A DNA stretch of 64,000 nucleotides from Dictyostelium discoideum (taxonomy: Eukaryota): the NCBI GenBank assembly GCA_000004695.1, contig CM000152.2:320001-384000 (forward strand). The letters are read 5' to 3'. Below the pieces are notes generated by a model. It saw nothing but the letters and a program-made list of their open reading frames with translations. It made no database searches and had not been told where the DNA came from. Below are positions 3,703 through 33,709 of the stretch, piece by piece. Position numbers and translations under genes: made by a program. How positions within the stretch are numbered: position 1 is the stretch's first letter; the number at the start of each line of letters is the position of its first letter.

Positions 3703-5752
<2,050 letters not shown>

Positions 5753-11505: not shown

Positions 11506-12006
11506 CAAATTTATTAAAATAAAAGAAAAAAAAAAAAAATTACAAATAAAGTAAAATATAAAAAAATAAAAATTAAAATAAAAATAAAATAAAATAAATC
11601 AAAAAAAAAAAAAAAAAATCAAATAATACCCCTTGTAAAAAATTTTAAAATAAAAAAAAAATAAAATATCTTTTTTTTAAAAAGCACCTTTTTTTTCAAA
11701 ATAAAAAAATATCTAAAATTTAATTTTTATTTTATTTTTTTTTTTTATTTTATTTTATTTTATTTTTTTTCTTTTTTTTGAAATTAATGTTGGAACCATC
11801 AAAAAATTCTGTGGATAAGAAAAAAAAAAAAAATTAAAAAATTTAAAGCTCCACTGCTGATTTAAATATTTATTATTATTTTTTATTTGTATTGTGGTGG
11901 GTTTTGTTTTCTTGTAAATTAAAAATAAATAAAAATAAAAACTTTTTTGTACTATTATTATTATTATATAAATTATTTTAAAAATAAAAAAAATAAAAAA
12001 TTAAAA

Positions 12007-12024
12007 ATGTCAAATCCAGTCTGT
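12007..12024 (+). CDS. speculative 6-codon first exon (MSNPVC) of the RasGEF gene, followed by a GTATGT donor; would splice in phase 0 to the acceptor at 12246
   Basis: AAAAATG context, immediate GTATGT, phase compatible with the next exon; however TGTGTATGTGT also occurs as a simple microsatellite at 11350. Confidence 0.2.
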
Positions 12025-12063
12025 GTATGTGTTTTTATTTACAATTTGATAAGGAAAAAAAAA

Positions 12064-12115
<52 letters not shown>

Positions 12116-12145
12116 AATTTTATTTGTAGATATATTGGGAAAAGA

Positions 12146-12197
<52 letters not shown>

Positions 12198-12246
12198 AAT
12201 AAAAAATATAAAAAAAAAAACTAATTTTAAGATTTAATTTTTATAG

Positions 12247-12349
12247 ATAAGTAATAGTACAAACGGAAGTAGTAATAGTTTAAATGGGGAATCAGTATCA
12301 CCAAATAGATTGGGATCATCTCCAGGTTCGCCAATTTCAAAAGCATCAT
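12247..12349 (+). CDS. RasGEF gene internal Ser/Asn-rich exon (ISNSTNGSSNSLNGESVSPNRLGSSPGSPISKAS), bounded by acceptor TTTTATAG and donor GTAATA, phase 0 in / phase 1 out
   Basis: Coding-like composition between splice signals; joins in frame (S codon completed) to the exon starting 12483. Confidence 0.45.
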
Positions 12350-12397
12350 GTAATATATCTTTAAATTTATTTATTTATTTATTTTATTTTTAACTTA

Positions 12398-12447
<50 letters not shown>

Positions 12448-12482
12448 CTCTCTCCTTATTATTAAATAATAATTATTATTAG

Positions 12483-14836
12483 CATTTGATTTAAATGGTA
12501 AAAAACCTACCAAAAGTAATGTTGTAAGATTATTATTAAATAGAACTAATTCTGGAAGCAATTTATTATCAAAAAGAAGAACTTCAGAGACAGGAGATGA
12601 TGATAGTAATTCTAGTGTTGGTTTATTGAATAACAGTACTGGTAGTATAGGTAAAATGAATACACCAGAATCATCACCCAAATCATCATATATTCTAAGT
12701 AGTAGTATTGGTAGTGGTGGTAGTGGTGGTGGAGGTGGTAGTAGTGGTAGTCTTCAAAATTTAGATAGTGCTAGTAATAATAGTAGTGGCCCAAGGAGTA
12801 GAAGTGGTAGTCTTGGTAAAAATAATAGTAGCCAACAAAATAATAATAATTTAATATTAGACCCAAATTTTAATAATATTGATAAATCATTATGGACTGT
12901 TAGATCATTAAAAGAACATTCAAATCTTGTTGATATTATGGAAAGAATTAAACCAGCAAGTAGAGCCATTTCATTTGGTCAAATTTATGCAAGTGAAGAA
13001 ACTCAATTTGAATTTGATCCAGTTATTGGTCGTGATAATATTTTACAATTAATTTTACAACATTTACAATTTGAAGGTTTAATGGACTCTAGAAAAATTT
13101 TAGAAGAGGAAGCTAAAATTCAATATCCAGAATATACATTCAATGAATCAAGATTAGTCACCTTATTACGTGCTGTCATAAAAGATTCTGATAAAGTTTT
13201 CGATCTAACTCTAAATGATAGAGATAAAGATTCTCAACAAAAATTAGAAGAACATTTAGCATTCCTTGGTTTATTCAAAGATGAATCTCAAACTAATATG
13301 GTTGAAGATGTAAATATCTATGATGAACCTGAAAATTCAAATATTATATATGTAGATGAAAAAGATAATGATAAACCTTCAAAAGATTCACCAACAACAG
13401 CAACAACAACAACGACAGCAACAACAATTGCACCAAGTACAAGTATTAATAATTTATCAAGTTTATCAGTTAGTATAAGTTCAAATAATATAAATAATAA
13501 TAATAATAATAATAATAATATAAATAATTTAAATAGTACACAATTAATTAGTAATACACAACAACAACAAGCAACACCAAATACACCACCACAAGGTTTA
13601 AAATCAACACAATCAATTACAGGATCAACTGGTACATTAGGACCACAAGTTAAAGCAGCATCATTAAATAAATTAGTAATTTTATTAACACCAGAGAATA
13701 ATCATGATTTAGAGTATACAAAGACATTTTTATTAATGTATCAATCATTTACAACACCAGAGATATTATTACAGAAATTGATTCAACGTTATCATGTACC
13801 ACAAAAGGCAGGTCAATCAGTTGCAGAATGGAGACAACGTTCAACTCATATTCAACTTCGTGTACTAAATGTATTGAAAACTTGGATCAAAGATTATTTC
13901 TCTGATTTCTCTGAAAAGTTAATACTTGCCATTAAATCATTATTGGAATCAATGAGACAAACTGGTAATATGTCTTATGCAAAGGTGATTTCCGATGCCT
14001 TGAATTCAGGTTTAAAGAAAAGTGGTCGTAATAACACGGTTTTCACAGTTTCAGCACCCGAGCCTAAAGTACCTAAAAACATTTGGTCTCACAATTTAGA
14101 CATTTTCTCTGTGGATGAAGAGGAGATCTCTAGACAATTGACCTTGATGGACTTTGAAATCTTTTCAAATATTAAATCAACTGAACTTTTAAATCAGTGT
14201 TGGAATAAACCAAAACTACGTCACCGTTCTCCAAATGTTTTAGAATTAATTGGTCGTTTCAATGAAATCTCTCAATGGACTGCCACTTCGATTCTCTCAT
14301 GGCCCAAGGTTAAAGACAGAGCTAGAATCATGGGTAAATTCATAAAGATCGCTGAATACTGTATGAAGCATTTAAATAATTTCAATACTTCAATGGCAAT
14401 TCTTTCCGGTTTAAACGCTTCCTCAGTGCACAGATTAAAATTCACAAAAGAGGAATTACCAAGACACACTCAACAAGTTTACACAGAGTTACAATTTCAT
14501 CTAAGTTCAGCCCAAGCTTACAAAGAGTATCGTGCTTTATTAGCCAAGGCTAATCCACCATGTTTACCTTATCTTGGTGTTTATTTAACAGATTTAACAT
14601 TCTTTGAAGAAGGTAATCCCGATTTCATTCAAGGTTTTATCAATTTCGGTAAAAGAAAGTTAATCTATGGTTCAATCTCAAATGTTCAAAGTTTTCAAAA
14701 TACAAAATATAATTTACAACCTGTTTATCAAATTGCAAAATTATTAAAAGGTTTTAAACTTTTAGAAGAAAATGAACTTTATACAAGATCAATGTCTTTT
14801 GAACCAAGAAATAAAGAAAGAAGTGAAATTTTATAA
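12483..14836 (+). CDS. Ras guanine-nucleotide exchange factor main exon: RasGEF N-terminal (REM) domain followed by a CDC25-homology catalytic domain
   Basis: The frame is open upstream of the track M (12626) back to acceptor ATTATTAG at 12481-12482. REM-like region LVILLTPENN...TFLLMYQSFTTPEILLQKLIQRY. CDC25 motifs LTLMDFEIFSNIK...ELLNQCW, ...NPPCLPYLGVYLTDLTFFEEGNPDF. Confidence 0.85.
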
Positions 14837-14995
14837 AATTATAAAAGATTATAATCTTATTATTAATAGAATAAAAATAAATAATAAAAATAATAATAAT
14901 AAAATAATAATAAATAATAATAATTAATTAATGTAACAGTAACAATTTTAAATAAAATAAAAAATTAAATAAAGTAATAAATAATTCAAAGTTTG

Positions 14996-15026
<31 letters not shown>

Positions 15027-15062
15027 TTGAATTATCAAAATAAATTATTTATTTAAATAAAT

Positions 15063-15396
15063 TTATTTTGGACAACATTTTTTGTCACATCCACATGTTT
15101 TGTTACATGTGTTTTCACATGAGCATGAAGAGCATTTACATTCTATTTGTTGTTCTTTTGGACATGAACAACTATCTTTACAACAGTTGCAGTTGTCTTT
15201 AGTTTTGCAGCATTTACAACAGTTTGCCTGAATTGTTTATTTCAATAAAAATAATAATAATAAAAAAAATAAAAGAAAATAATAATATTAAGTATTAGTT
15301 TTAAATATTAATGGTTTAGATAATAATATATATAAAAAAAAAAAAAAAAAAAATAAAAGATAAATTAAATATATAATTTTTATGTGAACATACCAT
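15063..15396 (-). CDS. metallothionein-like 55-aa Cys-rich protein (M|ANCCKCCKTKDNCNCCKDSCSCPKEQQIECKCSSCSCENTCNKTCGCDKKCCPK); exon 1 is just the ATG (15394..15396), intron 15228..15393 (GTATGT...ATTCAG), exon 2 15063..15227
   Basis: AAAATG|GTATGT arrangement typical of Dictyostelium. Exon 2 is an open 55-codon frame with 18 Cys in C-C, C-x-C and C-x-x-C spacings and a TAA stop. Not in the ORF track because it is under 60 aa. Confidence 0.5.
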
Positions 15397-16191
15397 TTTT
15401 TTATTTTTTATTATTATCTGTTTAAAATTTTAATATATTTAAAATGTTTTTTTAAATTTTTTTTTTTCGTTCTTATACTTTTTTTTTTTTCCTTTTTTAT
15501 TAAATGAAAATTTAGTAAAAATTAAAATTAAAATTAAAATTTAATAAAAATCCTTTTTTTGGAAATTTCACCCACATTCTAATATTTTCATAAAAAATAT
15601 TTTCACAATTTAAAAGACACACAAAGAAAGAAACTTTTGGAAATTTGAAAAAAAAAAAAAAAAATAAAAAAAATAAAAAAATAAAAAAAAAATAAAAAAG
15701 TTAATTTTAATATTATAATAAACAATGATACCATATTATTGTAATAATTATAAAATTTGAAATAAATAATATTTTTTTTTAAAATAATATATTATTTTTT
15801 TTTTATTTTAATTTAATATTTTCAGTTTTCTATTTTTATTGTTATTATTATTATTTTTTTTTTTAAAGAAATTTAAAGTTACCAAAATTAGGGAATTTAA
15901 ATTAATCCTGATGAATTGTAAACATTACTTTGATATTAAAATTTTTTTATTATTAACAAAATTGATAAATGAGTGATGGATTATTTTTTATAAGGGAATA
16001 ATTTTTTCATCTTGAATATTAACTGAGAATCTTATTTCTAATTCACCTCTTTCATTCAAAAAATCTTGTAAAACTTTTCTTGATTCTGTAAAACTATTAC
16101 CCAACCCAAATTTCTCGATTCTTCGAAATCTATTAGAAGCAATATTAGTATTAAACATCTTTAAATAAATTTATAATAAAGAGAATATACG

Positions 16192-17273
16192 CTATTTACC
16201 TTGATGATATGGTCCAAATGATATCACAGTGGCAGTTGAATCATCTGGTGGAATTAAAGAAAATGAAAACATATATTTTAAGAGTATATCGGATCTTGTT
16301 TTTCTCATTAAATATATACCAAGCTTTCCTTTATTTCCGGTATTGCCTTTTGGATAAATCCTAATATTAAATTTGTGAGATCCCACTTTAAAAACATTTG
16401 ATTCTTTATATTTTTCATGGGTATATAATGCACTAACACTTCTATAGTCAGGAATAATCCATTTGTTACTGTATTCCATCTCTTTAAAACCATTCTGTTT
16501 CAAAACATTTATTTCCTTTTTCAATTGAGTATAATCACAAAGGAGGATGTTAAGTTTTTGATTAATTTCTTCCATTTTTTTTTCTTGATTTAAAAAACTT
16601 TGATTATCTTTTTTTATTATTTCATTTTGATTCATTAGTTTTGTGACTGAATGTTCTAAAGAGTGAATTTTCATTTTTGATCTAGGAAAAAGTTTTCCAC
16701 ATAAAAATTCTTGACAAATAATATTAATATCAGACAATCATCATTTATATGTTTAGTTTTTGTATCTCTTTTAATCATAATTTTACAATGAGAGCATTCT
16801 ATTAAATATTTTGTGCAATGTGTTTTATGATGATCAGATAATGACGATCTTTGAATATTACTATTACAATATACACATTTTGAATATACTTTTGAACATT
16901 CATTTTGATGTTTGTCTGAATCCTTACTAAAAAACTTAATTAAACATAAATCACATTGCAATATTCTTGATTCACAAACTTTATAATGATTCTCTAATTC
17001 ACTAAATTTCATTACACCATGATTACATAGATCTTGATGTAATGTTTGATTGCTATTATTAATAGCAGGTAAACCCAACATGTTGAGTCTAAATACATTT
17101 TCGTTTGAATTTGGACAAAAAACCAATCTGTCTTTTAACCAATTAGAATATTCATTTTCCAAAAATCTATTTCTTGATAATTCTGAAATAGAAGAAATTG
17201 GTGTTTTACAAGTCATACACTTTTTATTTGTACTTAAATATCTTTCCCAACAACTTCTACAAGCTAAATGACC
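16192..17273 (-). CDS. TRAF-family paralog A, exon 2 (rest of RING, three TRAF-type zinc fingers, coiled coil, C-terminal MATH domain). A 1-bp deletion relative to copy B near 16735-16745 splits the frame, so this may be a pseudogene or a sequence error
   Basis: Acceptor AAAAAG|GGTCAT at 17274-17275. Track ORFs 16671..17216 and 16192..16737 are the two halves in different frames. Alignment to copy B shows 38 nt versus 39 nt between identical flanks. Confidence 0.55.
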
Positions 17274-17348
17274 CTTTTTCCAAAATTATAAATATTATAT
17301 GGTTAGAATAAATAATGTTAGATTATTAATAATATAATTTATATTTAC

Positions 17349-17549
17349 TTCTTTGCATTGAAGAGCTTTTGGTTCACTTCCAATAAATAATTCTAAACTA
17401 CAAATAATACATTCATATTTTTCTTCATCTGAATCAAATAAAATATCTTTTATTTCATATTTAATTGGAATTGCTGTTTGTGTAATTCTTGTTGGAGATG
17501 TTGCGTTGTTTACATGATTTAAAATACCGAACATTTTTTTTAAAGACAT
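17349..17549 (-). CDS. TRAF-family paralog A, exon 1 (N-terminal half of a C3HC4 RING finger: ...YECIICSLELFIGSEPKALQCKE|)
   Basis: ATG at 17549; GTAAAT donor at 17348; phase 0; near-identical to copy B exon 1. Confidence 0.6.
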
Positions 17550-17837
17550 TAAAAGAACAAATATAATAAAAAAGAAAATTCTAAGACATTAAAAGAACAA
17601 AAATAAAAAAAAAAGAAAAAAAAGAAATATAATAGGAAATGGCAGTTTGTGTTTTTTAAAAAATTTTTTTTTTTAATTACGAAAATAAATTTGATATTTG
17701 ATTTATTTATTATTGATTATCTTGATCAAAATTAAATTAACAAATAATAAATCTTTAAAAATTTAATTGATTAGACCATGTAAAAAAATTAGTATAATAA
17801 AAAAAAAATTAAGATAAAATATTATATTTAATTTTTT

Positions 17838-17860
17838 ATGTGAACATACCATTTTTTTTT
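17838..17860. other. orphan second copy of the metallothionein-like gene 5' end (AAAATG|GTATGTTCACATAAAAA on the minus strand) with no Cys-rich exon downstream; marks the duplication junction
   Basis: Identical 22-nt motif at 15381-15402 where it is the real start codon and donor; region 17550-17830 contains no Cys-rich frame. Confidence 0.5.
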
Positions 17861-18476
17861 TTTAATTTTTTTTATTATCTTTTGTAATATCTTTTAATTG
17901 TTTTTAAAAAATTTTTTTATTCTACTTGAAGTATACTTTTTTTAATTTTTTTATTCCACTTGAAGTATACTTTTTTTAATTTTTTTTTTTTTTTATGAAG
18001 TTTGATATAATATTATAATAAACAAAGATTATTGTAATATTATAAAATTTGAAATAAATAATTTTTTTTTTTTTAAATCAATATATTGTTTTTTATTTTA
18101 ATTTAATATATTTCATTTTATTTTTATTACTATTATTTTTTTCAATCAAATTTAAAGTTACCAAGATAGAGAGTTCGAATTAATCCTGATGAATTATAAA
18201 CATTAGTTTTATATTAAATTTTTTTTATTATTAACAAGACTAATATATGAGCGATCTATTAATTTTTATAAGGGAATAATTTTTTCATCTTGAATAGTAA
18301 TTGAGAAACTTATTTCTAATTCACCTTTTTCATTCAAAAAATCTTTTAAAACCTTTCTTGAATCTGTAAATACATTAGTACCACAACTCAAACTTCTAGA
18401 TTCTTCGAAATCTATTAGAAGCAATATTAGTACTTATTAACTTCTTTAAATAAATTTAAAATAAAGAGAATATAAA

Positions 18477-19556
18477 CTATTTACCTCTATGGATTGGTCC
18501 TAATGATACTTTTGTAGCAGTTGAATCTTCTGGTGGAAGTAAAGAAAATGAAAACATATATTTTAAGAGTATACCATATCTTGGTTTCCTTTCTAAAAAT
18601 ACACCAAACTTTCCTTGTTTTCCGGCTTGACCATTTGGATAAATCTTAATATAAAATGTGTGGGATCCCACTTGAAAATCATTTGAATTTTTACTCTTTT
18701 TATGAGTATATAAAGCATTAAAACTTCTATATTCAGGAATAATCCATTTGTTACTGTATACCATCTCTTTAAAACTGTTCTGTTTCAAAACAGCTATTTC
18801 ATTTTTCAATTGAATATAATTATTAAGGAGGTTGTTAAGTTTTAGTTTAATTTCTTCGATTTTTTTTTCTTGATCCAAATTTTGATTATCTTTTTTTATT
18901 ATTTCATTTTGATTCATTAGTTTTGTGACTGAATGTTCTAAAGAATGAATTTGCATTTTTGATCTAGTAAAACGTTTGCCACATAAATATTCCGAACAAG
19001 TAATCATAATTTCTTCACAATCATCATTTATATGTTTTGTTATTGTATCTCTTTTAATCATAATTTTACAATGAGGGCATTCTATTAAATATTTTGTGCA
19101 ATGTGTTTTATGATGATCAGATAATGATGATCTTAGAATATTACTATTACAAAATTCACATTTTGAATATACTTTTGAACATTCATTTTGATGTTTGTCT
19201 GAATCCTTACTACAAAATTTAATTAAACATAAATTACATTGTAATATTCTTGATTCACAAGCTTTATAATGATTCTGTAATTCACTAAATTTCATTGCAC
19301 CATGATTACATAGATCTTGATGTAATGTTTGATTGCTATTATTAATAGCAGGTAAACCCGACATATTGAGTCTAAATACATTTTCGTTTGAATTTGGACA
19401 AAAAACTAGTCTATCGTTTAACCAATTAGAATATTCTTTTTCCAAGTATCTATTTCTTGATAATTCTGAAATTGAAGAAATTGGTGTTTTACAAGTCATA
19501 CACTGTTTATTTGTGCTTAGATATCTTTCCCAACAACGTCTACAAGCTAAATGACC
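18477..19556 (-). CDS. TRAF-family paralog B, exon 2 (intact). Product of about 424 aa with RING (C3HC4, split by the intron), TRAF zinc fingers, coiled coil and MATH/TRAF-C domain
   Basis: GHLACRRCWERYLSTNKQCMTC completes the RING. Repeated C-x-C...H...C zinc-finger units. C-terminal YSNKWIIPEYRSF...FYIKIYPNG...FGVFLE MATH-like strands. Acceptor TAAAG|GGTCAT. Confidence 0.75.
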   Translation of the reverse strand, partial: GHLACRRCWERYLSTNKQCMTCKTPISSISELSRNRYLEKEYSNWLNDRLVFCPNSNENVFRLNMSGLPAINNSNQTLHQDLCNHGAMKFSELQNHYKACESRILQCNLCLIKFCSKDSDKHQNECSKVYSKCEFCNSNILRSSLSDHHKTHCTKYLIECPHCKIMIKRDTITKHINDDCEEIMITCSEYLCGKRFTRSKMQIHSLEHSVTKLMNQNEIIKKDNQNLDQEKKIEEIKLKLNNLLNNYIQLKNEIAVLKQNSFKEMVYSNKWIIPEYRSFNALYTHKKSKNSNDFQVGSHTFYIKIYPNGQAGKQGKFGVFLERKPRYGILLKYMFSFSLLPPEDSTATKVSLGPIHRGK

Positions 19557-19635
19557 CTTTATTTAAATGATTTTAATTAAATTATATGGTTAGAATAAAT
19601 ATTGTGATATAATTGATAATTTAATTAATATTTAC

Positions 19636-19827
19636 TTCTTTGCATTGAAGAGCTTTTGGTTCACTTTCAATAAATAATTCTAAAGTACAAATATCACATT
19701 CATACTTTTCTTCATCTGAATCAACTAATATATCTTTTATTTCATATTTAATTGGGATTACTTTTGGTGTAATTTTTGTTGGAGATGTTGGGTTGTTTAT
19801 GTTGTTAATTAGATTTATAAAATCAAG

Positions 19828-19830
<3 letters not shown>
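19636..19830 (-). CDS. TRAF-family paralog B, exon 1 (RING N-half, CDIC...C)
   Basis: ATG 19830; donor GTAAAT at 19635; intron 19557..19635. Confidence 0.7.
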
Positions 19831-19860
<30 letters not shown>

Positions 19861-20519
19861 CTAATAATGAGTATGAACAAAAATTAAAAAATAAAAGAAA
19901 AAAAGAAGAATAATTGGAAATTATGGTGAGTGTTACTGTTTGGAGGATGTTAAAAAAAAAAAAAAAAAAAAAAAAATAAATCAAAAATTAATCGTAATTT
20001 ATTTTAAAAAAAAAAAAAAAAATTTTTTTTCAATTTTGATTTTTGATTTATTATCTAGATTTAAAGCACAATGAAGCAGTTAGGGAATTAATTTTTTTTT
20101 TTTTGGGATATTTTTTTCTTTTTTTGGTGTCACGAAATCAGGAAAATAAAAAAAAATTAAAAATTAAAAATATATATTAATTATTTTTTTTTTTTTTAAT
20201 TTTACATTTTTATATTTTATTTATTTTTATATTTTTATTGTTTTTTTCAATGAAATTTAAAATTTCCAAAAATAGAGCAATTGATAATTTTTTATAATGG
20301 AACAGTTTCTTCACCTTTAATATTAATTGTGAAATATAATTCTAGTTCACCCCTTTCATTCAAATAATTTTTTAAAACATTTGTTGAATCTGTAAATTCA
20401 CTAGTACCCCAAAAGAAATTTTTAGATTCATGAAAATCTAATAGAAGCAAAATTAGTATTTTTTTTTTTCATCTTTAAATAAATTAATAAAAATGAGAAT
20501 AAACAGTATTTACCTATAT

Positions 20520-21780
20520 AGCATGGTTTCGATTTAATAATTTTTTTAAAATTTGAATCATTTGGTGGATTTTTAAAAAATAAAATATCATGTGTGCCAT
20601 ATATTGGCTCTCTAACTAATAATACAGCAAACTTTCCATGTTTTTTGGCCCTGCATTTGGATAAATCCTAAGATTAAATTTGTGAGAGCCCACTTTTAAA
20701 AACATTTGAATCTAAGTGCTTTTAATAATTCACTAACCTTTTAATAGTCATGAATAACCCATTTGTTTGTATGTCCTATTTCTTTTAAAACCATTATCTT
20801 TTGTATTAGTTAACCCATTTTGATTCATTAATTTGGCTACTGAATGTTCTAAAGAATGGATTTGTCTTTTTGTTCTCTTAAAACTTTTGCCACATAAATA
20901 TTCTGGACAAAAATCATTATTTCTTCACAATCATCATTTAAATGTTTTGTTTTTGTATCTCTTTCACTCACCATTTTACAATAAGTACATTCTATTGTAG
21001 ATCATCATTATCTGATCATCATAAAACTTATTGTAAAAAAAATTTTTTACAATAAGTTTTATGATGATCAGATAATGATGATCTTATGATATCAGTATTA
21101 CAAAATTCACATTTTAAAAATACTTTTGGACATTCATTTTGATGTTTTTCAGAGTCCATACCAAAAAACTTAACTAAACATAAATTACATTGTAATATTT
21201 CTAGATTCACAATTTTGAATATGTTTCTCTAATTCACTGAATTTCATTACTCCACGAATACACAAATCTTAATGTAATTTTTGATCAATGCTATTATTTT
21301 CATTATTAATAGCAGGAGAACCTAACATGTTGATTCTATATAAATTTTCAATGGAATATGGACAAACAACTAATCTATTTGATAGTCAATCAGAATATTC
21401 ATTTTCAAAAATTCTATTTCTTGATAATTCTGAAATTGGCATTTTACAAATCATACAATCTTTTTTTGTTCTTAAATGACTTTCCCAACAATTTGAACAA
21501 ACTAAATGACCCTTTTTAAAATATATATTTGGTTAGAATAAATGATGTGTTATATTAAATAAAAAAATTGTATATTTACTTCTTTGCATTGAAGAGCACT
21601 TGCATGATTTCCAATAGAATATTCTGAATAATAATTACATTCATATTTTTCTGCATCTGAATCAACTAAAATATCTTTTGTTTCATATTCAATTGAGACT
21701 GTTATTGGTGTAATTTTTGTTGAAGATGTTGTGTTGTTCAAATGATTAAAAATACCAAACATTTTGTTTTTTCCAACCAA
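20520..21780 (-). pseudogene. TRAF-family paralog C, shattered pseudogene: recognisable exon-1 and zinc-finger pieces, internal deletions (coiled coil/MATH mostly gone) and an inverted duplication at 21001-21082
   Basis: Track fragments 21550..21780 (MVGKNKMFGIFNHLNN...YECNYYS...) and 21028..21210 (ILQCNLCLVKFFGMDSEKHQNECPKVFLKCEFCNTDI) align to copies A/B but are in different frames with stops. Confidence 0.6.
21001..21082. repeat. near-perfect palindrome, two 40-bp inverted arms (atcatcattatctgatcatcataaaacttattgtaaaaaa / reverse complement) centred on an A8T6 run, inside TRAF pseudogene C
   Basis: The right arm is the native TRAF zinc-finger coding sequence (same as 19105-19140 in copy B); the left arm is its inverted copy. 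Confidence 0.7.
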
Positions 21781-21839
21781 AATAAAAAAAAAATAAAAAT
21801 AAAAATAAAAAAGTTCTAGTTCGGAGGAGGAAAAAAAAA

Positions 21840-22200
21840 AAAAAAGAAATCAAAGGAACTTGTTTTTAGTGTGATGGTTTTGAGGATGTTAAAAAAAGAA
21901 ATAAAGTAACTGGTAGTGAGTATTATGGTTTTAAGGGTGTAAAAAATTAAAAAAATAGAAATAAAAGAAATGTTGGTGATTATATAGTTTTAAACTATAT
22001 GGTTTGTAGGATGTGAAAAAAAGAAATAAAAAAAAAGAAATCAAAGAACCGTTGGTGATTTTATAGTTTTATTGTTTTAAGGATTTTAAAAAAAGAAATA
22101 AAATATCTGGTGGTAAATATTATGGTTTTGAGGATGTAAAAAAAAAAAAAAAAAAAGAAATCGAAGGATTTTATAGTTTGCATGAAGTTAAAAAAAAAAA
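21840..22200. repeat. minisatellite of about six 55-70 bp units (gaaat...ggtggtga.tattatggttttgaggatgt.aaaaaaa) in the 5' flank of TRAF copy C; single copies of the same element lie upstream of copy B (19900-19950) and copy A (17610-17660)
   Basis: Direct visual periodicity: the ggttttgaggatgt / ggtttgtaggatgt / ttttaagggtgt cores recur 6 times separated by poly-A. Confidence 0.6.
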
Positions 22201-22259
22201 TTTAAAAAATAAATAAAATTTTTCTCAACTTAATTTTAATTATACAAAATATATTCAAC

Positions 22260-22760
22260 TTATTTTTTAACACTATTGATTAATGGTAAACCCATATTGA
22301 GTCCAAATGTATTTAATTTGGAATATGGACAAACAACTAATCTATTATTTAACCAATTAAAATATTCATTTTCTAAATATCTACTTCTTGATAACATTAA
22401 AATTGATGGAATTGGAGTTCTGCAAATCATACACTCTTTTCTTAAAACTAAACATTTTTCCCAACAACTTTTACAAGCAAAATGACCCTATTTTTTTTTA
22501 AATTATATAAATAAATAATGTAGTGAGTATAATTATTATATTTTAATTATTAGATATGTATGTATTTATTTATTTACTTCTTTGCATTGAAGAGCTTCTG
22601 GTTTTTTCTCATTAATTAACTCTGAATTACAAATATCGCATTCATATTTTATTTCACTTGAATCAACTAATATATCTTTTATTTCATATCTAATTTGGGC
22701 TGGTATTGTTTCAATTTTTGTTGGACCTCTTCTATCCATTAGAGATACGACCCTAATCAT
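22260..22760 (-). pseudogene. TRAF-family paralog D, truncated. Exon 1 (22578..22760) plus a shortened exon 2 (22260..22487) give an intact 140-aa RING-only ORF; zinc-finger, coiled-coil and MATH parts are absent. Either a remnant or a RING-only neo-gene
   Basis: Same exon-1/intron/acceptor architecture as A/B (GTAAAT donor 22577, acceptor AATAG|GGTCAT). The frame runs ...[30 protein letters not shown]... to TAA at 22260. Confidence 0.45.
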
Positions 22761-22895
22761 TTTTTTTTAAATCCAAAATTGTGTAATTTAAAAATTTAAT
22801 GGCAACTATCAAAAAAAAAAAAAAAAAAAAAAATTAATTTATTTTCGTTCTTCAATATTTAAATTAAAATTGTGTTAAAAGTTAATATATGCTGA

Positions 22896-22926
<31 letters not shown>

Positions 22927-23306
22927 AGATCTTTTAACAAATTCTAAAATCCAATTCTTTAAATCCAGTAAATTTTAACTTTATTCAAGCAAAAAAAAAA
23001 AAAAAAAAAAAAAAACTCTATATCGGGTATTTTAATTTTTTTTTTTAAAAAAAAACCATTAATTTTATTTTTAATTTGTTAATTAAAAGGAATTTTTTGT
23101 TTTATAATTGATTGTTATAATATAAACACAAAAATAAATTAATATCAATTTTTATTTTTTGAATTAAAATTATCATCCATTCAATAATTAATTGGTACTG
23201 TTGTTGTCTAGAGAGTATGAAAAAAACCATTGTGGTTTTTATTTTAATCATTTTTTTTAAATCTTTATATAAAAATATATTTACAAAAATGTAAATACCA
23301 TTTTTC

Positions 23307-23337
<31 letters not shown>

Positions 23338-23454
23338 TAATAATATTTTAAAACACATTATTTATTTTATTATTTTTTATTTTTTTACAACTTTTTTATT
23401 ATTTAAAATAATTTTTTTATTCTTTGAGCCTTTTAAGTACTTTTTTAATTATTT

Positions 23455-23491
<37 letters not shown>

Positions 23492-23670
23492 CTGATTACA
23501 CCCCATTTTATTAAATATAATATTTTGGGTTGACTTCCAATTATGATTTTGATAATTTTAAAACATTTGATATGTACATATATATATTTTGTTTTAATTT
23601 TAATTTATTTAAATTTATTTTATTTTATTTTATTTTTATTAATTATTTTATTTTATTTTTATTTTTATTT

Positions 23671-26448
23671 TTAATTTAAAATACCTCTACCAAAATATTC
23701 AGAAACAGTAGTGAAACCATCAGGAGAACTTCTTAATAATTTAAAGAATTGATCATGTTGATTGGCGGAATCAGCTTGTGATCTTTTAATCTCTTGAATT
23801 CTTTTATTAGCACCAGCACAAGAAGGACATTCTCTTTCATTCTCACCGAGACATCTTTGATGGAAAGAATGTTGACATAAAAAGTGAACACTTGGTAAAT
23901 CCAAAGCCAATAGACAAGCGATACATTTAGTTTGTTGGAAAATTTTAGAATTTGTACGAAGTTCGTTGATTTCATGTCTCATCTTTTCAGTCTCATCGGC
24001 GTATTGTCTGATTTGAGTGTAATCCTTATCGATTTGTTGAGTTTCTTGAGACAATCTTCTAGAGATATAATCTTTGATGACGGCCAAAGTGGTATTCTTA
24101 TTTTGTGATAGGATTTGTATTACCAAGAGTGGTGGAATGAGATTCTCCTTATCGATGTTGGTCAACACCTCGATGATCTCATCTTGACAATCCTGTTTAT
24201 TGGTTGAAAAGAATGACAATGCTCTCACCCAAAGGTTTGGATCTTTTACACCATATCTCTTGCAAGCTTTGATCAAGCCATCGTAATCATTATTCTCCAT
24301 ATGGTACTCGATGATCTCATTGAATAACTCTAACTTTTCATATAAATACAATACACCCTCCTTCCAATTATGAACTTGTACTAAAATCAATGCATGATCT
24401 TGATCAAATTTTGATTTTGGATTCGTTAAAAATTCATATGCTTTCGCTTTTCTCTTTATTCTCTCATCATCAGTTTGATTGACATCATCTCTCAAATATA
24501 ACTCTAACAATGTATTATAAATTAATGATGATTCATTATTACCTTGTTGTACCATATATTCTAAAAATTTAACTAACCAATCTGCTTGTGATACAAAAAT
24601 ATGAATAAATTCTTCTGGTGCTGATTTTTGTTTAAATCCAATATTATTATTATTATTATTATTATTATTTTGATTATTATTATTACTATTATTATTTTGA
24701 TTATTATTATTTGTTACATTTGTTACAGTTGTTGTTGTTGTTGTTTGATTACTAATTGTTAAACCATTTAAATTTAAAGCTGTTAAAGAATCAAAAGCTT
24801 GAACTGGTTGATAATTTGTACATAATTTCATTAAGACACCAGTAGTTTCTTCAGGAATTTCAGAGACTAATTGTTTACCATATTTTTTAAGATTTTTATC
24901 AGCTTCTTCCCAATCAAGTGTTTGAATGTAATCTAAAGCTTTTCTATATTCATTGAGATCCTCCAAGAGAATTTTAAGATACCAATCGTGACGACTATGT
25001 TTTGATGCTAAAAAGAGTGCACGATCGAAATAACCACCTTGACGACAAACTTTAATTGCTGTCTCGACATCGAATGTACCATTGTCTGTCATAATGAAAT
25101 GATCGAGTTTCTTTACATCCTTTAATTTGGTATAACAATTCAAGAGTAGTGTAGTGTGGTTGGCTGTGGCTAAATTCTTCTCATGCAATGCTTGAATGTA
25201 TGATGTAAGATTATGAATTCTTTGAGCGTCCAAGAACTTTCTAATGACATAAGATGGCTCCAACTGACCAATCGTGCAAAGGTATTGGGTGATGGCGCCG
25301 TCGTAGTCGCCCTTGGCATACAACCTGTCGCCATACTCCCTATAGACGTCTGCAATGGCACTATTGTCATAATGCTGTGACTTTGCTAAATCGATAGCCA
25401 CTTGATATGAATGCTTCTTAAACAAGGTTTCCAACTTGGTTTGTGTGTCTTTCTCCTCCAATTGAAACACCTTACCATCGGCACCAAATATGAAAATTGA
25501 GCCCCACTCACTGCAAATATGAGACACTGTATCGAACTTCTCTGTGAAACCAATATATTTATTCTTTAAATCATAGATATTCAATACATTGTTTTTCGTG
25601 TTTTGCACCATAACCGATGGCGACCCAATACTACCTGTCTGACTACCCAACCCACCTATGCTATTCTGTCCGCCTACCACAGCACCTGGGAACAAGGCAT
25701 TGGTGTTGTTAGTGTCATATCCAATCACTACCAAATAGGAACGGAACCACAGCACTTTGGTCTTCACACCTGTGAAACCAAAACACGGTCCTCTTCCATC
25801 CACATTATAGAAATAAATTGCATCTGATCTTGCTATAATTGGCGACCCATCGTCACTCATTAAAAACGAGCCGATGTCACCCCCCTCATCGTCTATTATC
25901 GTCTCTTGATCTTTATGTGCTGTATGATAGGTTATAACATGTGTTGTTGTCACTACAAACAACACTGCACCCGCACTCGCACTCTGTTGACTCTTTGTTG
26001 GGAAAAACCCTAACCCTGTAATTGGCGAATCGTTTGGTACTTTGATAATCTTTTGTTTAATAACTTTATCTCTAAATATATCTGCTCTAATTATAATGAT
26101 TTCACCATTTGCTAAACCAACGATAATCTGTGACAAATCTTCCAACAATGTGAAACATGTTACTGTAACTGATTTCTCTAATTTAATAGATCTAACACAA
26201 ATTGGTTGTTCATTCTTATCAGTTTTATCAAGATTCCAAATTTTTAAGATTGCTGCACCACCAATATCATCATGACCAACTGAAGAAAGGAAATTTCTCT
26301 CCTTTAATTGATAAATTAATGATACTGATTGTTGATATGCTTGAAATGATGATATTCCAAATTCTCTATCTACAAAATTAATAAAACCTTCTGCATCACC
26401 AATAATTAAACTACCACGACCACTAGTTGTACATGTAATTGATAATTT
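23671..26448 (-). CDS. vps11: Vps11 (HOPS/CORVET core subunit) exon 2: beta-propeller, clathrin-heavy-chain-like repeats, C-terminal RING-H2
   Basis: C-terminus CIACLLALDLPSVHFLCQHSFHQRCL...CPSC...FTTVSEYFGRGILN closely parallels human VPS11 (LPSVHFLCGHSFHQHCF...CPTC...FSVIADYFGRGVFN). Also YVIRKFLDAQRIHNLTSYIQALH and TTLLLNCYTKLKD match. Confidence 0.85.
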   Translation of the reverse strand, partial: KLSITCTTSGRGSLIIGDAEGFINFVDREFGISSFQAYQQSVSLIYQLKERNFLSSVGHDDIGGAAILKIWNLDKTDKNEQPICVRSIKLEKSVTVTCFTLLEDLSQIIVGLANGEIIIIRADIFRDKVIKQKIIKVPNDSPITGLGFFPTKSQQSASAGAVLFVVTTTHVITYHTAHKDQETIIDDEGGDIGSFLMSDDGSPIIARSDAIYFYNVDGRGPCFGFTGVKTKVLWFRSYLVVIGYDTNNTNALFPGAVVGGQNSIGGLGSQTGSIGSPSVMVQNTKNNVLNIYDLKNKYIGFTEKFDTVSHICSEWGSIFIFGADGKVFQLEEKDTQTKLETLFKKHSYQVAIDLAKSQHYDNSAIADVYREYGDRLYAKGDYDGAITQYLCTIGQLEPSYVIRKFLDAQRIHNLTSYIQALHEKNLATANHTTLLLNCYTKLKDVKKLDHFIMTDNGTFDVETAIKVCRQGGYFDRALFLASKHSRHDWYLKILLEDLNEYRKALDYIQTLDWEEADKNLKKYGKQLVSEIPEETTGVLMKLCTNYQPVQAFDSLTALNLNGLTISNQTTTTTTVTNVTNNNNQNNNSNNNNQNNNNNNNNNIGFKQKSAPEEFIHIFVSQADWLVKFLEYMVQQGNNESSLIYNTLLELYLRDDVNQTDDERIKRKAKAYEFLTNPKSKFDQDHALILVQVHNWKEGVLYLYEKLELFNEIIEYHMENNDYDGLIKACKRYGVKDPNLWVRALSFFSTNKQDCQDEIIEVLTNIDKENLIPPLLVIQILSQNKNTTLAVIKDYISRRLSQETQQIDKDYTQIRQYADETEKMRHEINELRTNSKIFQQTKCIACLLALDLPSVHFLCQHSFHQRCLGENERECPSCAGANKRIQEIKRSQADSANQHDQFFKLLRSSPDGFTTVSEYFGRGILN

Positions 26449-26534
26449 CTTTTTTTTTTTCAATAATAATAATAATAGTAAAAAATAAATTAGTATTAAA
26501 TTCTTATTAATATTATTTTTTTGTGAATACATAC

Positions 26535-26615
26535 TTGTAACGAAGATCCATCTTCTTTTTCAACCTGTTTTACAGTCTCAATATCAAAGAATGTGAATCT
26601 CTTCCAATTATTCAT
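26535..26615 (-). CDS. vps11: Vps11 exon 1 (MNNWKRFTFFDIETVKQVEKEDGSSLQ), phase 0; intron 26449..26534 (GTATGT...AAAAAG)
   Basis: Matches the VPS11 N-terminus (WRRFVFFDKELVKE). The track ORF N-terminal MYSQKNN...LLLLKKKKK is intron read-through. The upstream in-frame MIFLIFFFFFF is a poly-T 5'UTR. Confidence 0.65.
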
Positions 26616-26767
26616 TCTTTTTGTATTCTTTAATAAAATGAAATTGTAATTTTGGCGAAAAAAAAAAAAAAAAAAAATCAAAAAAATCAAAAAAAAAAAA
26701 ATTAAAAAAAAAAAATTAAAAAAAAATTAAAAGAAAAATAAAAATAAAAAAATAATTAAAAAAAAAT

Positions 26768-26802
<35 letters not shown>

Positions 26803-27067
26803 TAGAGAAAATAATTTGACCTTTAACCTTTATTTGAAGCAAAATATCCTTAAGGATACTTAATTTTTTTTTTTTTTTTTTATTTTTTTAATTTTTTTTT
26901 ATTTTTTTTTTTTCTTAAACAACAAAGAGGTGCGCTTTGTGACCAGTGTATGGCGAGGGTTGTTATCTAATACCTAAAAACTTTTTAATTTTTTAAATTA
27001 ATTTTTATTTTATTTTTTTTAAATTTTATTTTATTTTTTGTTTTTTTTTTTTTTTTCAAAAATAAAA

Positions 27068-27108
<41 letters not shown>

Positions 27109-27204
27109 TATATTTTTTTTTTTTAATTTTTATTTTTTTTTTTTCTTTTTTTCTTCAAAAACATTTTAAAAATCAATACTTTGCGGTTGCTTTATGACGC
27201 TTCC

Positions 27205-29089
<1,885 letters not shown>

Positions 29090-29184
29090 GTAAGTAAAAA
29101 AATAAAAAATAAAAATAAAAAATAAATAAAAAATAAAGATAAAAAAATTAATTATAATTATAATTATAATTATTATTATTATAG

Positions 29185-32100
29185 TTAGCATTAGATTCAC
29201 AAGGTTTATATGTTGGAGATCAAAATGCAATGAAAGCAGCAGGACATGAATTAAAAGGTTTAATGAGTTATTATAATTGTAGAGTTGAAGGTTTACATCA
29301 TCCATTAATGGCATTAATTGATTATAGAGGATATCGTTTAGTTGCAATGTCACTATTACCAATTAATTCAGATACGATTGTTTATGGAAGTAGTGATGGT
29401 GGTATATCAGTTCATAACTCTGATGAGGATTTCAATCAAAAGATGATAGAATCTGCGAAAATATTGAATATTAAAGGTCATATGGTAGGAAAAGATGAGC
29501 AGAAACTTTTGTATTCATGTGGTGACATTGAGGGACATATCGGATCCGATAGTAAGAGGTATCTATTGGATTTCGCTAGAGTGTTCCCACCACAGATGAA
29601 ACTATTCGATAAAGGACCACCAACTCATCTATTCGAACTCATTAGACCCGAACTTGTAAAATCAAACTCTGTACCATTATCATCGGATGCTTTAACGGGT
29701 TGGGGTAAATTCGACTCGCTGGCATTGGAGCATAATAATCAAGTGAAGGAAGCATCGTTCAGATTGTTTCTAAAGGTTATACCAGAGCTTGCACATTATT
29801 TGAATAATTTGGATAAGAGAGAGATTCATCTAACACAGGAACTTCACAGGGTCGGTGTAAATTGTAGACATATGGGTTTGGTTAGAAGATATGTAAAGAA
29901 TAAATATGTAAGAAAGATACTGTTGGATGAGATTATGGCAAGAACTATGAAATCAGAGATGATGCAATTGTTTAGAAGTAAGATGAAGACTGCGGACACT
30001 CCATCTGAAGAGCCTTTCAAAGAGGTGGTGGTACAATATTTGAATGCTCTCTTCAAGTATGAGGATTCTGTCACTACACCAGGTTGTAAAGTTTGGCCAC
30101 GTTCCCTAAGAAAATCAATTGAAAAGAAATTCTTTGGAACTTTTCAAATGAATGATACCAACTCTAGTGTGATCACTTTTGAGAAGATTCAAGGCAAACG
30201 TTTTGATGAGGATGCCATAAAGAGATTTATAAAGGGTGCAAGTTTCACCATTCAAGAGGAGATGTTTGTAGATAGTGTAGATATACCAAATGTAATGAAA
30301 CGTTTCAATCAATTGACTGGTGTCGGGTTAACTAGTAGAGCATTGAGAGAGATCACCAAACATGATGGTGTTAGATTGGTACAATCCGATGTAAAGAGAA
30401 TGAAAGCCAAAGTTAAGGCACATCATTTGGTGGAGTTTGCCGAAGGTATGGTTCTTTGGGATGAAGCAAAGAAGGAGAAATCAAGAGAAAAGATAGAGGG
30501 TGCTTTCTGTCCTTGTCCAGTGACATTGATCAATGGTGATGCTGCCGATAAAATCACAGATCGTCTCTTTGGCTTGGCAGATGACCATTTTCGTAGCGCA
30601 TTATCAGTTTCACCGCATTCAGCAGAGGTCACTGCAAATTGGGCAATGATGTTGATGGAAAGAGCAAGAATGTCAAGAGAATGTGTGCCACAAGAGGCGG
30701 ATCTCTATTATAATGCCGCCGAGGAAAAGGTTAGATCATGTTTGGCCGATGGTGGTAAACCAAAGATTGCATTGGAGAATGTATTATTAGAGTATTCGGA
30801 ATTCCTTTGTATTTGGGGTACTACCACCGACCAAATCTTGGATCTCAATGAAGCCAATGGGCTAAAGAGTAAAGTATTTAGTAGAGCAAGTAAAAAGTTG
30901 AATGAATGTGTCAAATTGAATCCATCAAAGTTTGCATTGGTTTTACAAAAATCGAAAATCATCGATAACCTATTTCATCAATCATCATTCTTTAAACAAT
31001 CTGCAGCAGTCTATGCAGCGGTTTGTACCATTTGCGATTGTTTGATACAATCATTCCTAAATATACCTCCACAATATTATAGAGAGATTGCAGAGGTGAT
31101 CATTCAAAATCTCAATCCAATGGATTTAATGAAATCGGATCCAGAGGCAATAGGTAATCCAACGATCAATGGTGAGAATATGTTTGATAAAATTAAAGCC
31201 GTCAATGATATACCATTGAAAAATGTACTCTCCACTAGAAAGGATGAGAATGAAATCAATTACCTCTTGGAACATAATCCATTAGAAATATTGAAAGCGG
31301 AAATGGGTGTAATGTATCTACGTTATGGTTACACCTCTCATGTCTATGGTATTCAATGTTCAAAGAGACAACACACCAAAATGGCATCAATAAAGTTATT
31401 CAATAAAACAGGCGGACTCTTTCAACGTGGTATCGATATGGATTCCTATAATAAGGATTTCATGTTGGATCATATTAAAAAGTTTACCTCGTCAAGTCAG
31501 TTTGTTGAATTCTATCAATCAATCATTGGTTGTCCTTGTATTATGGAATTTGTAAAGGATAGACTATCGAGAATCGCTCATATGTCTCTAAAAGATTGTA
31601 ATCATCTCTCTATAGAATTTGTTGAGGGTGTAATTGAACTATCACATCGTGTTAGAATGTTGGTATTGGATGGTTGTACTCAGATCACCAATGATACCAT
31701 CAAATTAATCATTAGAAAGTTACCACATTTAGAAACACTATCTTTAGCTGGTTGTCAAAATATTTCAACCATTATACCCAATTCAATGTTGAAAGAGTTT
31801 CAACAAGATAAACAAAAACAACAACAACAACATTTACAACAACAACAACAGCAACAACAACAAGATCAAAAAGAAAATAAAATTTGTTCATTATTTGATA
31901 AAAATTGTCATTCAAGTAGTAGTAGTGGTAATAGTAGCAGTACAAGTATTAATAGTAGTACAAATATTGGTGGTAATCAATTTGGTGGTGGTCTTACAAC
32001 TAGTGGTGGTACTTTAGGTGGTGGTGGTGGTAGTAGTGGTAGTTTATCAAATTCAAGTTCACCTTCAAATTCATTTTTATCAACTTCAAATTCTTCAAAT

Positions 32101-33709
32101 TCATCATTCTCTTCAGAGAAAACAACTTCAGTTAATCATAGACATAGTATTTCTGCAACATTAAATGTACCATTTGTTAGTTCAAATTCATTAGCACAAT
32201 CATCACCTGGTAGTCCAATTTCACCAAGAATAAATAATAGTAATCCATCACCATCACCATCATCAACTTTACCACAACATAATTCAACATCAAGTTTAAT
32301 ATCACCATTATCATCATCATCATCATCATCTCAATCATCATCTCAATCATCATCAAATGTTAATACAACTGTATCAATGTCAACAACATCATCATTGGAA
32401 TCATTTGTATATGTTAAACCATTTATAAATTTACAAAATTTAAATTTAAATGATTGTAAATCAATTAATGATCATCAATTAATTAATATAGCTCTAATGC
32501 AATTACCATTGGTAAATGTTTATTTGAAAAGATGTAATGTTTCAGATTTATCAGTGGTTCAATTGGTTCAAAATTGTCCAAGATTATCAACTTTGGAACT
32601 CTCTTATACAACCATTACAGATCAATCAGTGTTGGCAATCTCAAGTGGTTGTTTATCTTTGAAAGAATTACATTTGGATGGATGTTTAGCGGTTGGTTGG
32701 TTATCAATTGAAAAGTTGGTTAGAACGATTCACGATATACGTTTACTATCATTGGCTGAATGTCCTGGTGCTGCCAATGATAATACTTTACGTTTGATTG
32801 GAAAGTATTGTACCAATATGCATTTCTTAACATTGTCTTCAAATACTACAATAACCGATTCCGGTATGATTAGCATGTGTAAACATACAACTTAACCTAT
32901 TGGATTTGAATATCAATTTTTGTGGAAATCTAACCGATGCCTCTATCAATCAAATCGCCGTTAGTTGTGTCAAACTTCGTACTTTGAAAATGATTGGTCT
33001 TAATCATGTCACCTCTTTGAAATCAATTGGTACTCATTCTTTGGATTTGGTTTATTTGGACATTAGTGAGTGTCATAAGATCTCTCAGGGTTTGGGCGCA
33101 ATTGCAAAGGGTTGTTCGAAATTGACAACTTTTAAACTCAAGAGATGCTATGGCTTCAAGGATGCTTCATTAATCTCTGACGATGGCGATCTTCATCTAA
33201 TGCAACGTTTAACCATTTTAAATTGGAGTTATGTAAACATTGAATTCAATGCCATTCACTCCATATCTCATAGTTGTCAATACCTAACCAGTTTAAATAT
33301 CTCCTATTGTAAGAGTTTAAATGATAATGCCCTCGAAAGAATTGCAAACTCTTTGACAAATATAAAGAAATTGAAATTTGATGGAATTATCAATATCACC
33401 GATGATGGTATTAAATCGCTAAGTGATGGTCCAATCTTTAGTGCAGTCGAAGTTTTGTCAATGGTAGGTTGTAGAAAGATCTCTGATGTTTCTGCTCATC
33501 ATATCCTAAGATTTAATAATTTGAGAAAGTTATCAATTGGTGGTTCATTAATGACAACAAATGGTGTAGATATTATTGCTTCAAGTTCATTTGAATTGAT
33601 TAAAATTCATGTTAGAAATTGTTTAAATATTAATCCAACAAGTTTAAAAGAAAATCATCCTCATATATTTATAGATACAACTCAAAAAGATTATAATGTA
33701 TTTATTTAG
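29185..33709 (+). CDS. same gene, exon 2: rest of the CLU domain (LALDSQGLYVGD...LMALIDYRGYRLVAMSLLPINSD...KRYLLDFARVFPPQ), long linker, then at least 10 cysteine-containing leucine-rich repeats (LDGCTQITNDTI..., LSLAGCQNIS, LNLNDCKSINDHQL...). Apparent +1 frameshift at the TT of 32892-32893
   Basis: Acceptor TTATTATAG|TTAGCA (29183-29184). Track ORFs 29230..32895 and 32900..33709 (TTG pseudo-start) are adjacent frames. Deleting one T gives ...CKHTTNLLDLNINFCGNLTD, restoring LRR periodicity. Confidence 0.65.

Follow-up and report, generated by a model that had tools for sequence, protein, structure and literature searches.

The 64,000-nucleotide (nt) stretch of Dictyostelium discoideum chromosome 3 analysed here (contig CM000152.2, positions 320,001 to 384,000; hereafter the window) harbors four copies of a gene encoding a TRAF-like protein, all on the minus strand between positions 15988 and 22760, with a RasGEF gene on one side and the vps11 gene on the other. 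From left to right they are termed A to D: A is a recent pseudogene, B an intact gene, C an old, shattered pseudogene, and D a gene truncated after its RING domain. These copies are best read, with a probability of about 0.62, as TRAF-like RING ubiquitin ligase (E3) genes forming a tandem cluster that is young and lineage-specific and undergoes ordinary birth-and-death under weak constraint. The best-supported form of this reading is that purifying selection is weak but real and that random accidents remove single copies, a loss that the redundancy among paralogs would make tolerable. A first-pass annotation of the same DNA had proposed four same-strand paralogs, which tblastn searches (with B and a full-length D-type protein as queries) and the open reading frames (ORFs) confirm. 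It had also described them as rapidly evolving RING-TRAF-MATH genes caught in birth-and-death, and this general picture is borne out by the comparisons below, with corrections to several of its details.

The four copies share a three-exon structure and its splice sites, with conserved GTAAAT donors and AG acceptors. Self-blastn aligns them at the nucleotide level far beyond chance; a failure to align had been named at first pass as grounds for abandoning the idea. A and B (15708-17512 vs 18008-19799) exhibit 88% identity over 1820 nt (E = 0), C displays 73-76% and D 76-77% nucleotide identity with A or B. The A/B tandem repeat has a period of 2455 bp (start 15341 vs 17796), as announced (about 2.45 kb). 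The repeat is clear yet not clean, contrary to its first description: aligned over their whole length, the two units agree at 84% of 2260 aligned nt and require 417 gap columns; the match rises to 88% over the genic portion and to 93-96% where the zinc fingers are encoded. The comparison of synonymous changes suggested earlier for A and B yields dS = 0.17 and dN = 0.10 (synonymous and nonsynonymous substitutions per site, Nei-Gojobori).

Comparison of the vps11-RasGEF interval between genomes illustrates which copies are gained and lost. The syntenic intervals were retrieved from four more genomes of the D. discoideum complex (L002 to L005), from D. citrinum and from D. firmibasis, and D. purpureum was also retrieved; L002 and L003 are D. 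discoideum, and L004 and L005 are designated “D. cf. discoideum” and possibly represent the cryptic species M4B and S6B. The state of each copy was deduced by projecting the exon structure of B onto it. In AX4 and AX2, D is truncated, C shattered and B intact, and A bears two frameshifts. L002 possesses intact D (458 amino acids), B (472 amino acids) and A (469 amino acids) genes, C being absent. L003 has an intact D (455 amino acids), the last exon only of C, an intact B, and a truncated and frameshifted A. In L004, an intact D (457 amino acids) is accompanied by a degenerate C copy plus a MATH fragment and by one intact A/B-type gene (466 amino acids). Finally, L005 contains a D pseudogene, one A/B-type pseudogene and one intact A/B-type gene (465 amino acids), and no C was found in its interval. 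C is dead or absent in five of five genomes, at least one intact A/B-type copy is present in each of the five, and some strains still possess an intact A or D, both of which the AX lineage has lost. Different copies are intact or dead from genome to genome, as expected from birth-and-death.

A neighbor-joining tree separates an old D clade, C, the A lineage and the B lineage. Across D. discoideum strains, the A genes form one clade and the B genes another, with 100% and 99.5% bootstrap, respectively. The D. citrinum interval contains one intact D-like gene, sister to the D clade (96%) and 57% identical to the D orthologs. In D. firmibasis, the vps11-RasGEF spacer is shorter than 1 kb and contains no gene and no detectable remnant, and no synteny is found around vps11 in D. 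purpureum. The closest TRAF-like proteins of D. citrinum (P0021, P0023) were considered as a syntenic array and rejected, their locus being unrelated. The D. citrinum D-like gene (L008, 13578-15700) harbors two very long poly-Asn tracts, one in the linker and one between the coiled coil and the MATH domain; its frame is open and encodes 585 amino acids.

The intact copies evolve fast yet are still constrained: their zinc ligands are kept and their frames are kept open. In Nei-Gojobori counts, dN/dS amounts to 0.55-0.75 in the A/B clade and 0.38-0.45 among D orthologs; in the same genome pairs, vps11 yields 0.04-0.11 and the RasGEF gene 0.11-0.24. This difference is observed at similar dS: the values of the flanks relative to the window (0.04-0.22; 0.05-0.14 between the window and L002) overlap those of AX4 B and its orthologs (0.12-0.13). 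Over independent pairs, dN/dS is below 1 (p = 0.009). Cysteine and histidine columns are invariant in 31 of 34 cases, compared to 122 of 204 for the other columns (p = 2e-4). In a neutral simulation, at most 2.4% of ORFs are still open at 3% divergence, and 0.15% at 5%.

The changes are unevenly distributed along the protein. In the by-domain test, made on six sequences, the ratio of the proportions of nonsynonymous and synonymous differences (pN/pS) is 0.48 in the RING domain and 0.52 in the zinc fingers, and is highest in the coiled coil (1.18) and the MATH domain (0.77). Such a profile, together with a protein evolution about 5-10 times that of the neighboring genes at similar dS, is what might be seen at a locus of cell-autonomous immunity or recognition, in which an arms race against pathogens, symbionts or other amoebae would shape the substrate-binding coiled coil and MATH domain, and in which presence/absence polymorphism would be under selection and not drift. 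However, none of the tests for positive selection is significant in Nei-Gojobori counts (p = 0.23 for a dN/dS ratio, omega, above 1 in the coiled coil; p = 0.09 for C- vs N-terminal halves), and the overall omega is below 1. An indel hotspot located exactly at the loop that aligns with the substrate-contact DWGF motif of SPOP, as well as the retention of at least one A/B-type copy in all five genomes, would fit the same scenario; conversely, the losses resemble random lesions. Precedents exist within the family, as TrafE takes part in anti-mycobacterial defence (PMC10181826), and outside it, in nematode and plant ubiquitin-ligase adaptor families for which PMC1866355 (which cites such cases) and PMC12951971 report birth-and-death with positive selection. 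As for the cluster itself, no mention of the identifiers DDB_G0278129 to DDB_G0278135 was found in the searchable literature. Taken together, an adaptive origin of the pattern seems rather unlikely. A more ambitious version is distinctly unlikely: the cluster would be polymorphic and would set specificity in amoebal cell-autonomous immunity, or in incompatibility between strains or species; its coiled-coil and MATH surfaces would diversify under selection, and the strain-specific set of live copies would decide resistance to particular intracellular bacteria or symbionts, or add to the reduced mating between D. discoideum and its cryptic sister species.

Birth-and-death under weak constraint is the preferred reading, and several observations weigh against it. 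Between AX4 B and the CR116C-type allele, dN/dS is 0.76, a value not significantly below 1 (p = 0.14), and even the “intact” AX copy could be near neutral. At the site aligned with the DWGF motif of SPOP, AX4/AX2 B has a cysteine in place of the tryptophan of the “WG” motif. The pN/pS values of the coiled coil and MATH domain leave room for some adaptive change, below the resolution of a Nei-Gojobori count on six sequences. Both A/B-type copies of L005 group together (96%), which points to a possible gene conversion or independent duplication that would complicate a simple birth-and-death history. Finally, the function of the cluster proteins, including their putative E3 activity, is assigned by homology only.

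The RING/TRAF zinc finger/coiled coil/MATH architecture is established, as Pfam, profile searches against the PDB, and AlphaFold/Foldseek agree with one another and with the initial proposal. In B, the RING domain spans residues ~43-90, the TRAF zinc fingers ~150-280, the coiled coil ~263-325 and the MATH domain ~330-467. The RING ligands are complete (CxxC...CxH..CxxC...CxxC, residues 45-87, of C3HC4 type) and invariant in 16 relatives. Pfam RING models match B below cutoff only (20.3 vs 27.3 bits), and the family profile aligns to the RING domains of TRAF6, RNF4 and SIAH1. The zf-TRAF model (PF02176) is found in B with 33.3 bits (cutoff 27), and MATH_2 (PF22486), scored on B alone, narrowly misses its cutoff (29.5 vs 32 bits); both models match 16 of 16 family members, with best E values of 1e-22 and 2e-19, respectively. 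Searching PDB sequences with B alone returned marginal matches only (TRAF6, E = 0.009), and a profile was needed: the family profile matches the RING-zinc finger segment of TRAF6 (residues 81-159, E = 3.8e-14) and the MATH domain of SPOP (2.7e-12), as well as SIAH1, TRAF4 and USP7. The AlphaFold prediction was unusable with a 6-sequence alignment (predicted local distance difference test score, pLDDT, of 52) and reached a pLDDT of 78 with 16 sequences. The resulting model of B comprises the RING domain, four beta-beta-alpha zinc fingers, a ~60-residue helix and an eight-stranded C-terminal sandwich; the predicted coiled coil is formed by long helices at 263-284 and 294-325. Foldseek identifies the C-terminal sandwich with the MATH domain of SPOP (template modelling score 0.81, root-mean-square deviation 2.9 Å) and also with TRAF4, and the N-terminus with TRAF6. 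By analogy with TRAF6 and with TrafE, a RING-dependent E3 ligase of the endolysosomal damage response (PMC10181826), the cluster proteins may oligomerise and possess a ligase activity dependent on a ubiquitin-conjugating enzyme (E2).

Word-indexed homology searches gave locus proteins only, and the family context was therefore obtained from an exhaustive HMMER search. It returned 561 relatives at E <= 1e-3 and 10 at E <= 1e-30, the latter being members or fragments of the locus and a few Dictyostelium TRAF-like proteins. The closest known systems are the Dictyostelium TRAF-like E3 ligases (DdTRAFa-p; TrafA-E, especially TrafE, DDB_G0290971), which belong to the same organism and share the RING domain, TRAF-type zinc fingers, coiled coil and MATH domain. 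TRAF-like genes elsewhere also occur in tandem pairs, for example a D. citrinum pair in L006. The nearest named genes, DDB_G0272340 (DdTRAFg) and DDB_G0277243 (DdTRAFf), display 35% and 31% identity, respectively. At 90% identity, each falls into one cluster shared by D. discoideum, the cryptic sister species, D. citrinum, D. firmibasis and D. dimigraforme, whereas B alleles share only 82% protein identity (an 18% difference) among D. discoideum strains. As the outside paralogs are conserved at >= 90% across five species, the subfamily of the locus is the unusually fast one. Concerning mammals, the match to TRAF6 extends to the fold of the RING-zinc finger region and the MATH fold resembles the TRAF domain of TRAF4, but the cluster MATH domain is nearer to SPOP-type MATH than to mammalian TRAF-C domains, in sequence as well as in structure. 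To our knowledge, Dictyostelium has no TNF-receptor pathway. Orthology with mammalian TRAFs is not assignable, and the cluster genes are not among the 16 full-architecture TRAFs listed in the same study (PMC5758549).

Two further systems are worth comparing. The nematode and plant F-box and MATH-BTB families, as presented in PMC1866355 and PMC12951971, resemble the cluster in their lineage-specific tandem expansion, frequent pseudogenes, presence/absence differences and fastest evolution in the substrate-binding domain. They differ in that the cluster has four copies instead of hundreds, encodes single-chain RING ligases and not cullin adaptors, and displays no significant positive selection. 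The hypermutable tgrB1/tgrC1 allorecognition locus, also located on chromosome 3, undergoes strain-specific gain, loss and fragmentation of tandem genes in the same genomes (PMC12745789). It is a different locus, however: the flanks of the TRAF-like cluster are fully collinear in all genomes, with no inversions or large unalignable swaps, and the cluster would encode cytosolic ligases whereas the tgrB1/tgrC1 products are surface receptors.

The history of the locus may be reconstructed as follows. A D-type founder would have occupied the site, as in D. citrinum, nothing being present there in D. firmibasis, and the C and A/B lineages would have been added by tandem duplication in the D. discoideum complex. 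A would have been knocked out by a 1-bp deletion and a small indel, and C by a fold-back inverted duplication, small indels, a 105-bp deletion and nonsense mutations. In D, a deletion of more than 1 kb would have taken everything 3' of the RING domain. The dead copies differ by strain, with at least one intact A/B-type gene staying in each genome. The mode of action of the intact proteins would be that of other TRAF/TrafE-type ligases, the RING domain recruiting an E2, the zinc fingers and coiled coil ensuring oligomerisation, and the C-terminal MATH domain binding substrates or adaptors; change would be fastest in the coiled coil and the MATH domain.

Annotation of A, B and D is already present in AX4, and UniProt names B (Q54YP8) a “TNF receptor-associated factor family protein”. 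What is new is the history of the locus: its origin after the D. firmibasis split, its expansion in the D. discoideum complex, losses that differ between strains, and surviving proteins whose rate of change is about ten times that of their neighbors. It marks a fast-evolving, strain-variable TRAF subfamily, distinct from the conserved TrafA-E-type genes. As AX2 and AX4 carry a single intact member, B is a clean single-gene knockout target, and what is found in AX strains may not hold for wild strains in which three copies are intact. The cluster is a compact and fully resolved textbook example of tandem birth-and-death, including a fold-back inverted duplication inside a pseudogene, and raises no new biological question.

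B is an uninterrupted three-exon ORF of 470 codons, identical to the AX2 annotation. The AX4 model (DDB_G0278133) has 477 amino acids, as it uses an intron-2 acceptor 21 nt upstream, which adds 7 residues. B was rightly called intact at first pass, with a length (about 424 amino acids) that falls short of both models. A TACTAAT motif resembling the yeast branch-point consensus is conserved in every copy, 14 nt upstream of the intron-2 acceptor (window 18430-18412 and equivalents), and this spacing favors the 470-residue model over that of AX4. To note, the loop aligned with the DWGF motif of the SPOP MATH domain is a family hotspot for indels and substitutions (B, 18411-18370; A, 16129-16095). 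At this loop, at the start of exon 3, AX4/AX2 B reads “SLSCGT” where other alleles read “SWG”; in A, the second frameshift falls within this loop, where the intact ortholog has lost 6 nt.

The lesions of A were called by alignment with the intact L002 ortholog, which shares 94% nucleotide identity, and five other intact relatives. The first is a 1-bp deletion directly 3' of the DDC codons, followed by a stop 20 codons on; the second, in exon 3, represents +2 nt relative to the L002 ortholog and -4 nt relative to B. Only the former had been noticed at first pass, A being described as a copy with a single frameshift. With both lesions padded, A amounts to 467 codons with zero stops, and this lack of further stops indicates a recent inactivation. 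A is annotated only as a 262-residue RING-zinc finger ORF, the window ORF being identical to AX4 DDB_G0278131. Rescue by splicing was considered and rejected: in exon 3, a shift to the alternative AG acceptor leads to an immediate stop, and no plausible intron skips the first frameshift without loss of zinc-finger cysteines. Within the same genome, A (~17100-16950) and B (19385-19235) are 97% identical over 150 columns, each being 93-94% identical to its own L002 ortholog, which hints at a short gene-conversion tract, with counts too small for significance.

D encodes 136 amino acids, comprising the RING domain and a linker; its description as RING-only is correct, the 140 residues first attributed to it being slightly too many. 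Its homology to full-length D genes, which encode 455-458 amino acids in L002, L003 and L004, ends at 22269, two codons short of the stop. Nothing in the window corresponds to L002 6037-9556, a segment that takes in the 3' portion of D, and the D-C spacer of L002 (7088-9557) contains no ORF of at least 60 amino acids. The 262-residue A and 136-residue D products, if expressed, might act on full-length TRAF-like ligases as decoys or as dominant-negative regulators: in both, the start codon is kept, the first intron is intact and no RING zinc ligand is missing, the annotations of AX4 and AX2 treat them as protein-coding, and the retained part of D evolves with a dN/dS of 0.20 relative to its full-length orthologs. 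The latter value may nonetheless predate the truncation, as the RING domain is the most constrained part in every copy. Likewise, the absence of further stops in A beyond its two frameshifts might be invoked, but its untranslated downstream part shows no accelerated decay, for which recency is as good an explanation as function. The truncations are moreover limited to single lineages, and a function for these stubs appears very unlikely.

C fully deserves the description “shattered with an inverted duplication” that it had received. Its alignment with B reveals seven frame-breaking indels (~21203, 21037, 20911, 20790, 20726, 20697 and 20654) and two nonsense codons (TGG to TGA, CAA to TAA). 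The first CxxC motif of the RING domain is destroyed (CDIC to CNYY). One of the seven indels is a net loss of 104 nt (+1/-105), whose 105-nt deletion takes out the coiled coil. Another adds 41 nt relative to B; these repeat the zinc-finger coding sequence just before them in reverse complement and yield an 86-nt palindrome, 97.7% self-complementary, which is a typical fold-back or template-switch lesion. The AX2 annotation divides C into ORFs of 102, 101 and 111 amino acids.

The reality of these lesions was assessed against AX2-214 (GCA_054883475.1, CM142509.1), an independent Nanopore and Illumina assembly recognised as that of Holland et al. 2025 (PMC12745789) by its locus-tag prefix ACTFIT. 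Over the 15 kb from 12001 to 27000, the window shows 2 mismatches and 69 gap positions relative to it, and positions 15001-23600 contain 15 differences in 8.6 kb, none of them in A. Homopolymer length accounts for 11 of these 15 differences; the other four comprise C to A substitutions at 22802 and 22698, which flank the start of D, 22698 being in exon 1, one A that the window has in excess at 21200, and a single T at 22156. The extra A, located inside C, adds one more frameshift to this copy relative to AX2-214 and is either a real AX4/AX2 variant or a sequencing error. Save for this base, the A and C lesions agree between the two assemblies, including both A frameshifts and the palindrome of C, and the breakpoint of D is the same as well. 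This agreement bears, though indirectly, on the first-pass condition that an in-frame spliced RNA-seq transcript of A would reveal an assembly error. The idea that the frameshifts and truncations reflect faulty sequencing or assembly of AT-rich, repeat-rich DNA (78% A+T, with many homopolymers that differ in length between the window and AX2, in addition to base 21200), and that the locus really consists of several intact genes, is essentially excluded by this agreement, by the absence of a long homopolymer at either A lesion, and by the different lesions found at the same locus in other strains.

Coordinates of the features of the TRAF-like cluster and of its flanks in the window
Feature	Positions	Strand	Remarks
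Flanking RasGEF gene, synteny anchor	12626..14836	+	ORF, cross-genome synteny
Tandem unit A (pseudogene A and flanks)	15341..17795	-	2455 bp, aligns with unit B
Copy A, DDB_G0278131	15988..17549	-	exons 17549 (or ATG 17534)-17349, 17273-16200, 16129-15988
Copy A, frameshift 2, exon 3	16095..16110	-	~16101
Copy A, frameshift 1	16725..16740	-	1-bp deletion, ~16733
Tandem unit B	17796..20277	-	aligns with unit A
Copy B, DDB_G0278133 (UniProt Q54YP8)	18266..19830	-	exons 19830-19636, 19556-18485, 18411-18266
Copy C, old shattered pseudogene	20292..21762	-	alignment with B
Palindrome in C, 86 nt	20999..21084	.	self-blastn, inverted-repeat listing
C-D spacer repeats	21833..22203	-	5-6 degenerate copies, ~51-nt unit
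Copy D, DDB_G0278139 (Q54YP5)	22260..22760	-	exons 22760-22578, 22487-22260
Flanking vps11 gene, synteny anchor	23671..26532	-	DDB_G0278141-type, Q54YP4

The repeats of the C-D spacer have ACATCCTCAAAACC as sense-strand core, which matches five times in the window against 0.64 expected. A single copy of the ~51-nt unit (19937-19950) precedes the start codon of B by ~100 nt. The unit is also found directly upstream of the C-type copy of L004 (4756-4947) and joined to the C last-exon remnant of L003 (14180); it may be an amplified promoter or 5'-untranslated region element of the C/B lineage.

Additional genes are present in some of the compared intervals: L005 contains a thioredoxin-domain gene between vps11 and D (4605-5317), and L004 a gene encoding 336 amino acids, with no recorded domain, between D and C (2978-4152). 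In vps11 and the RasGEF gene, L002 and L003 differ from the AX lineage by a dS of ~0.04-0.14. North American isolates are usually quoted with a low diversity, far below such values. The divergence of L002 and L003 fits the deep structure reported in PMC12745789.

A TIR-like gene had been placed 7 kb away from the array at first pass. Pfam analysis of all large ORFs between 1235 and 37918 returned no TIR domain within ~12 kb of the array even at E <= 5, and this claim is not supported. The domains identified are TTI1, RCC1-repeat, UDG, RasGEF, vps11, CLU/eIF3-p135/leucine-rich repeat (LRR) and RhoGEF. The gene located ~7 kb off (27181-33709, plus strand; 2135 amino acids in the AX2 annotation) encodes a protein with CLU and eIF3-p135 domains and C-terminal LRRs, and is probably the one that was taken for TIR-like; its LRRs bear a weak resemblance to plant RPS2-type LRRs.

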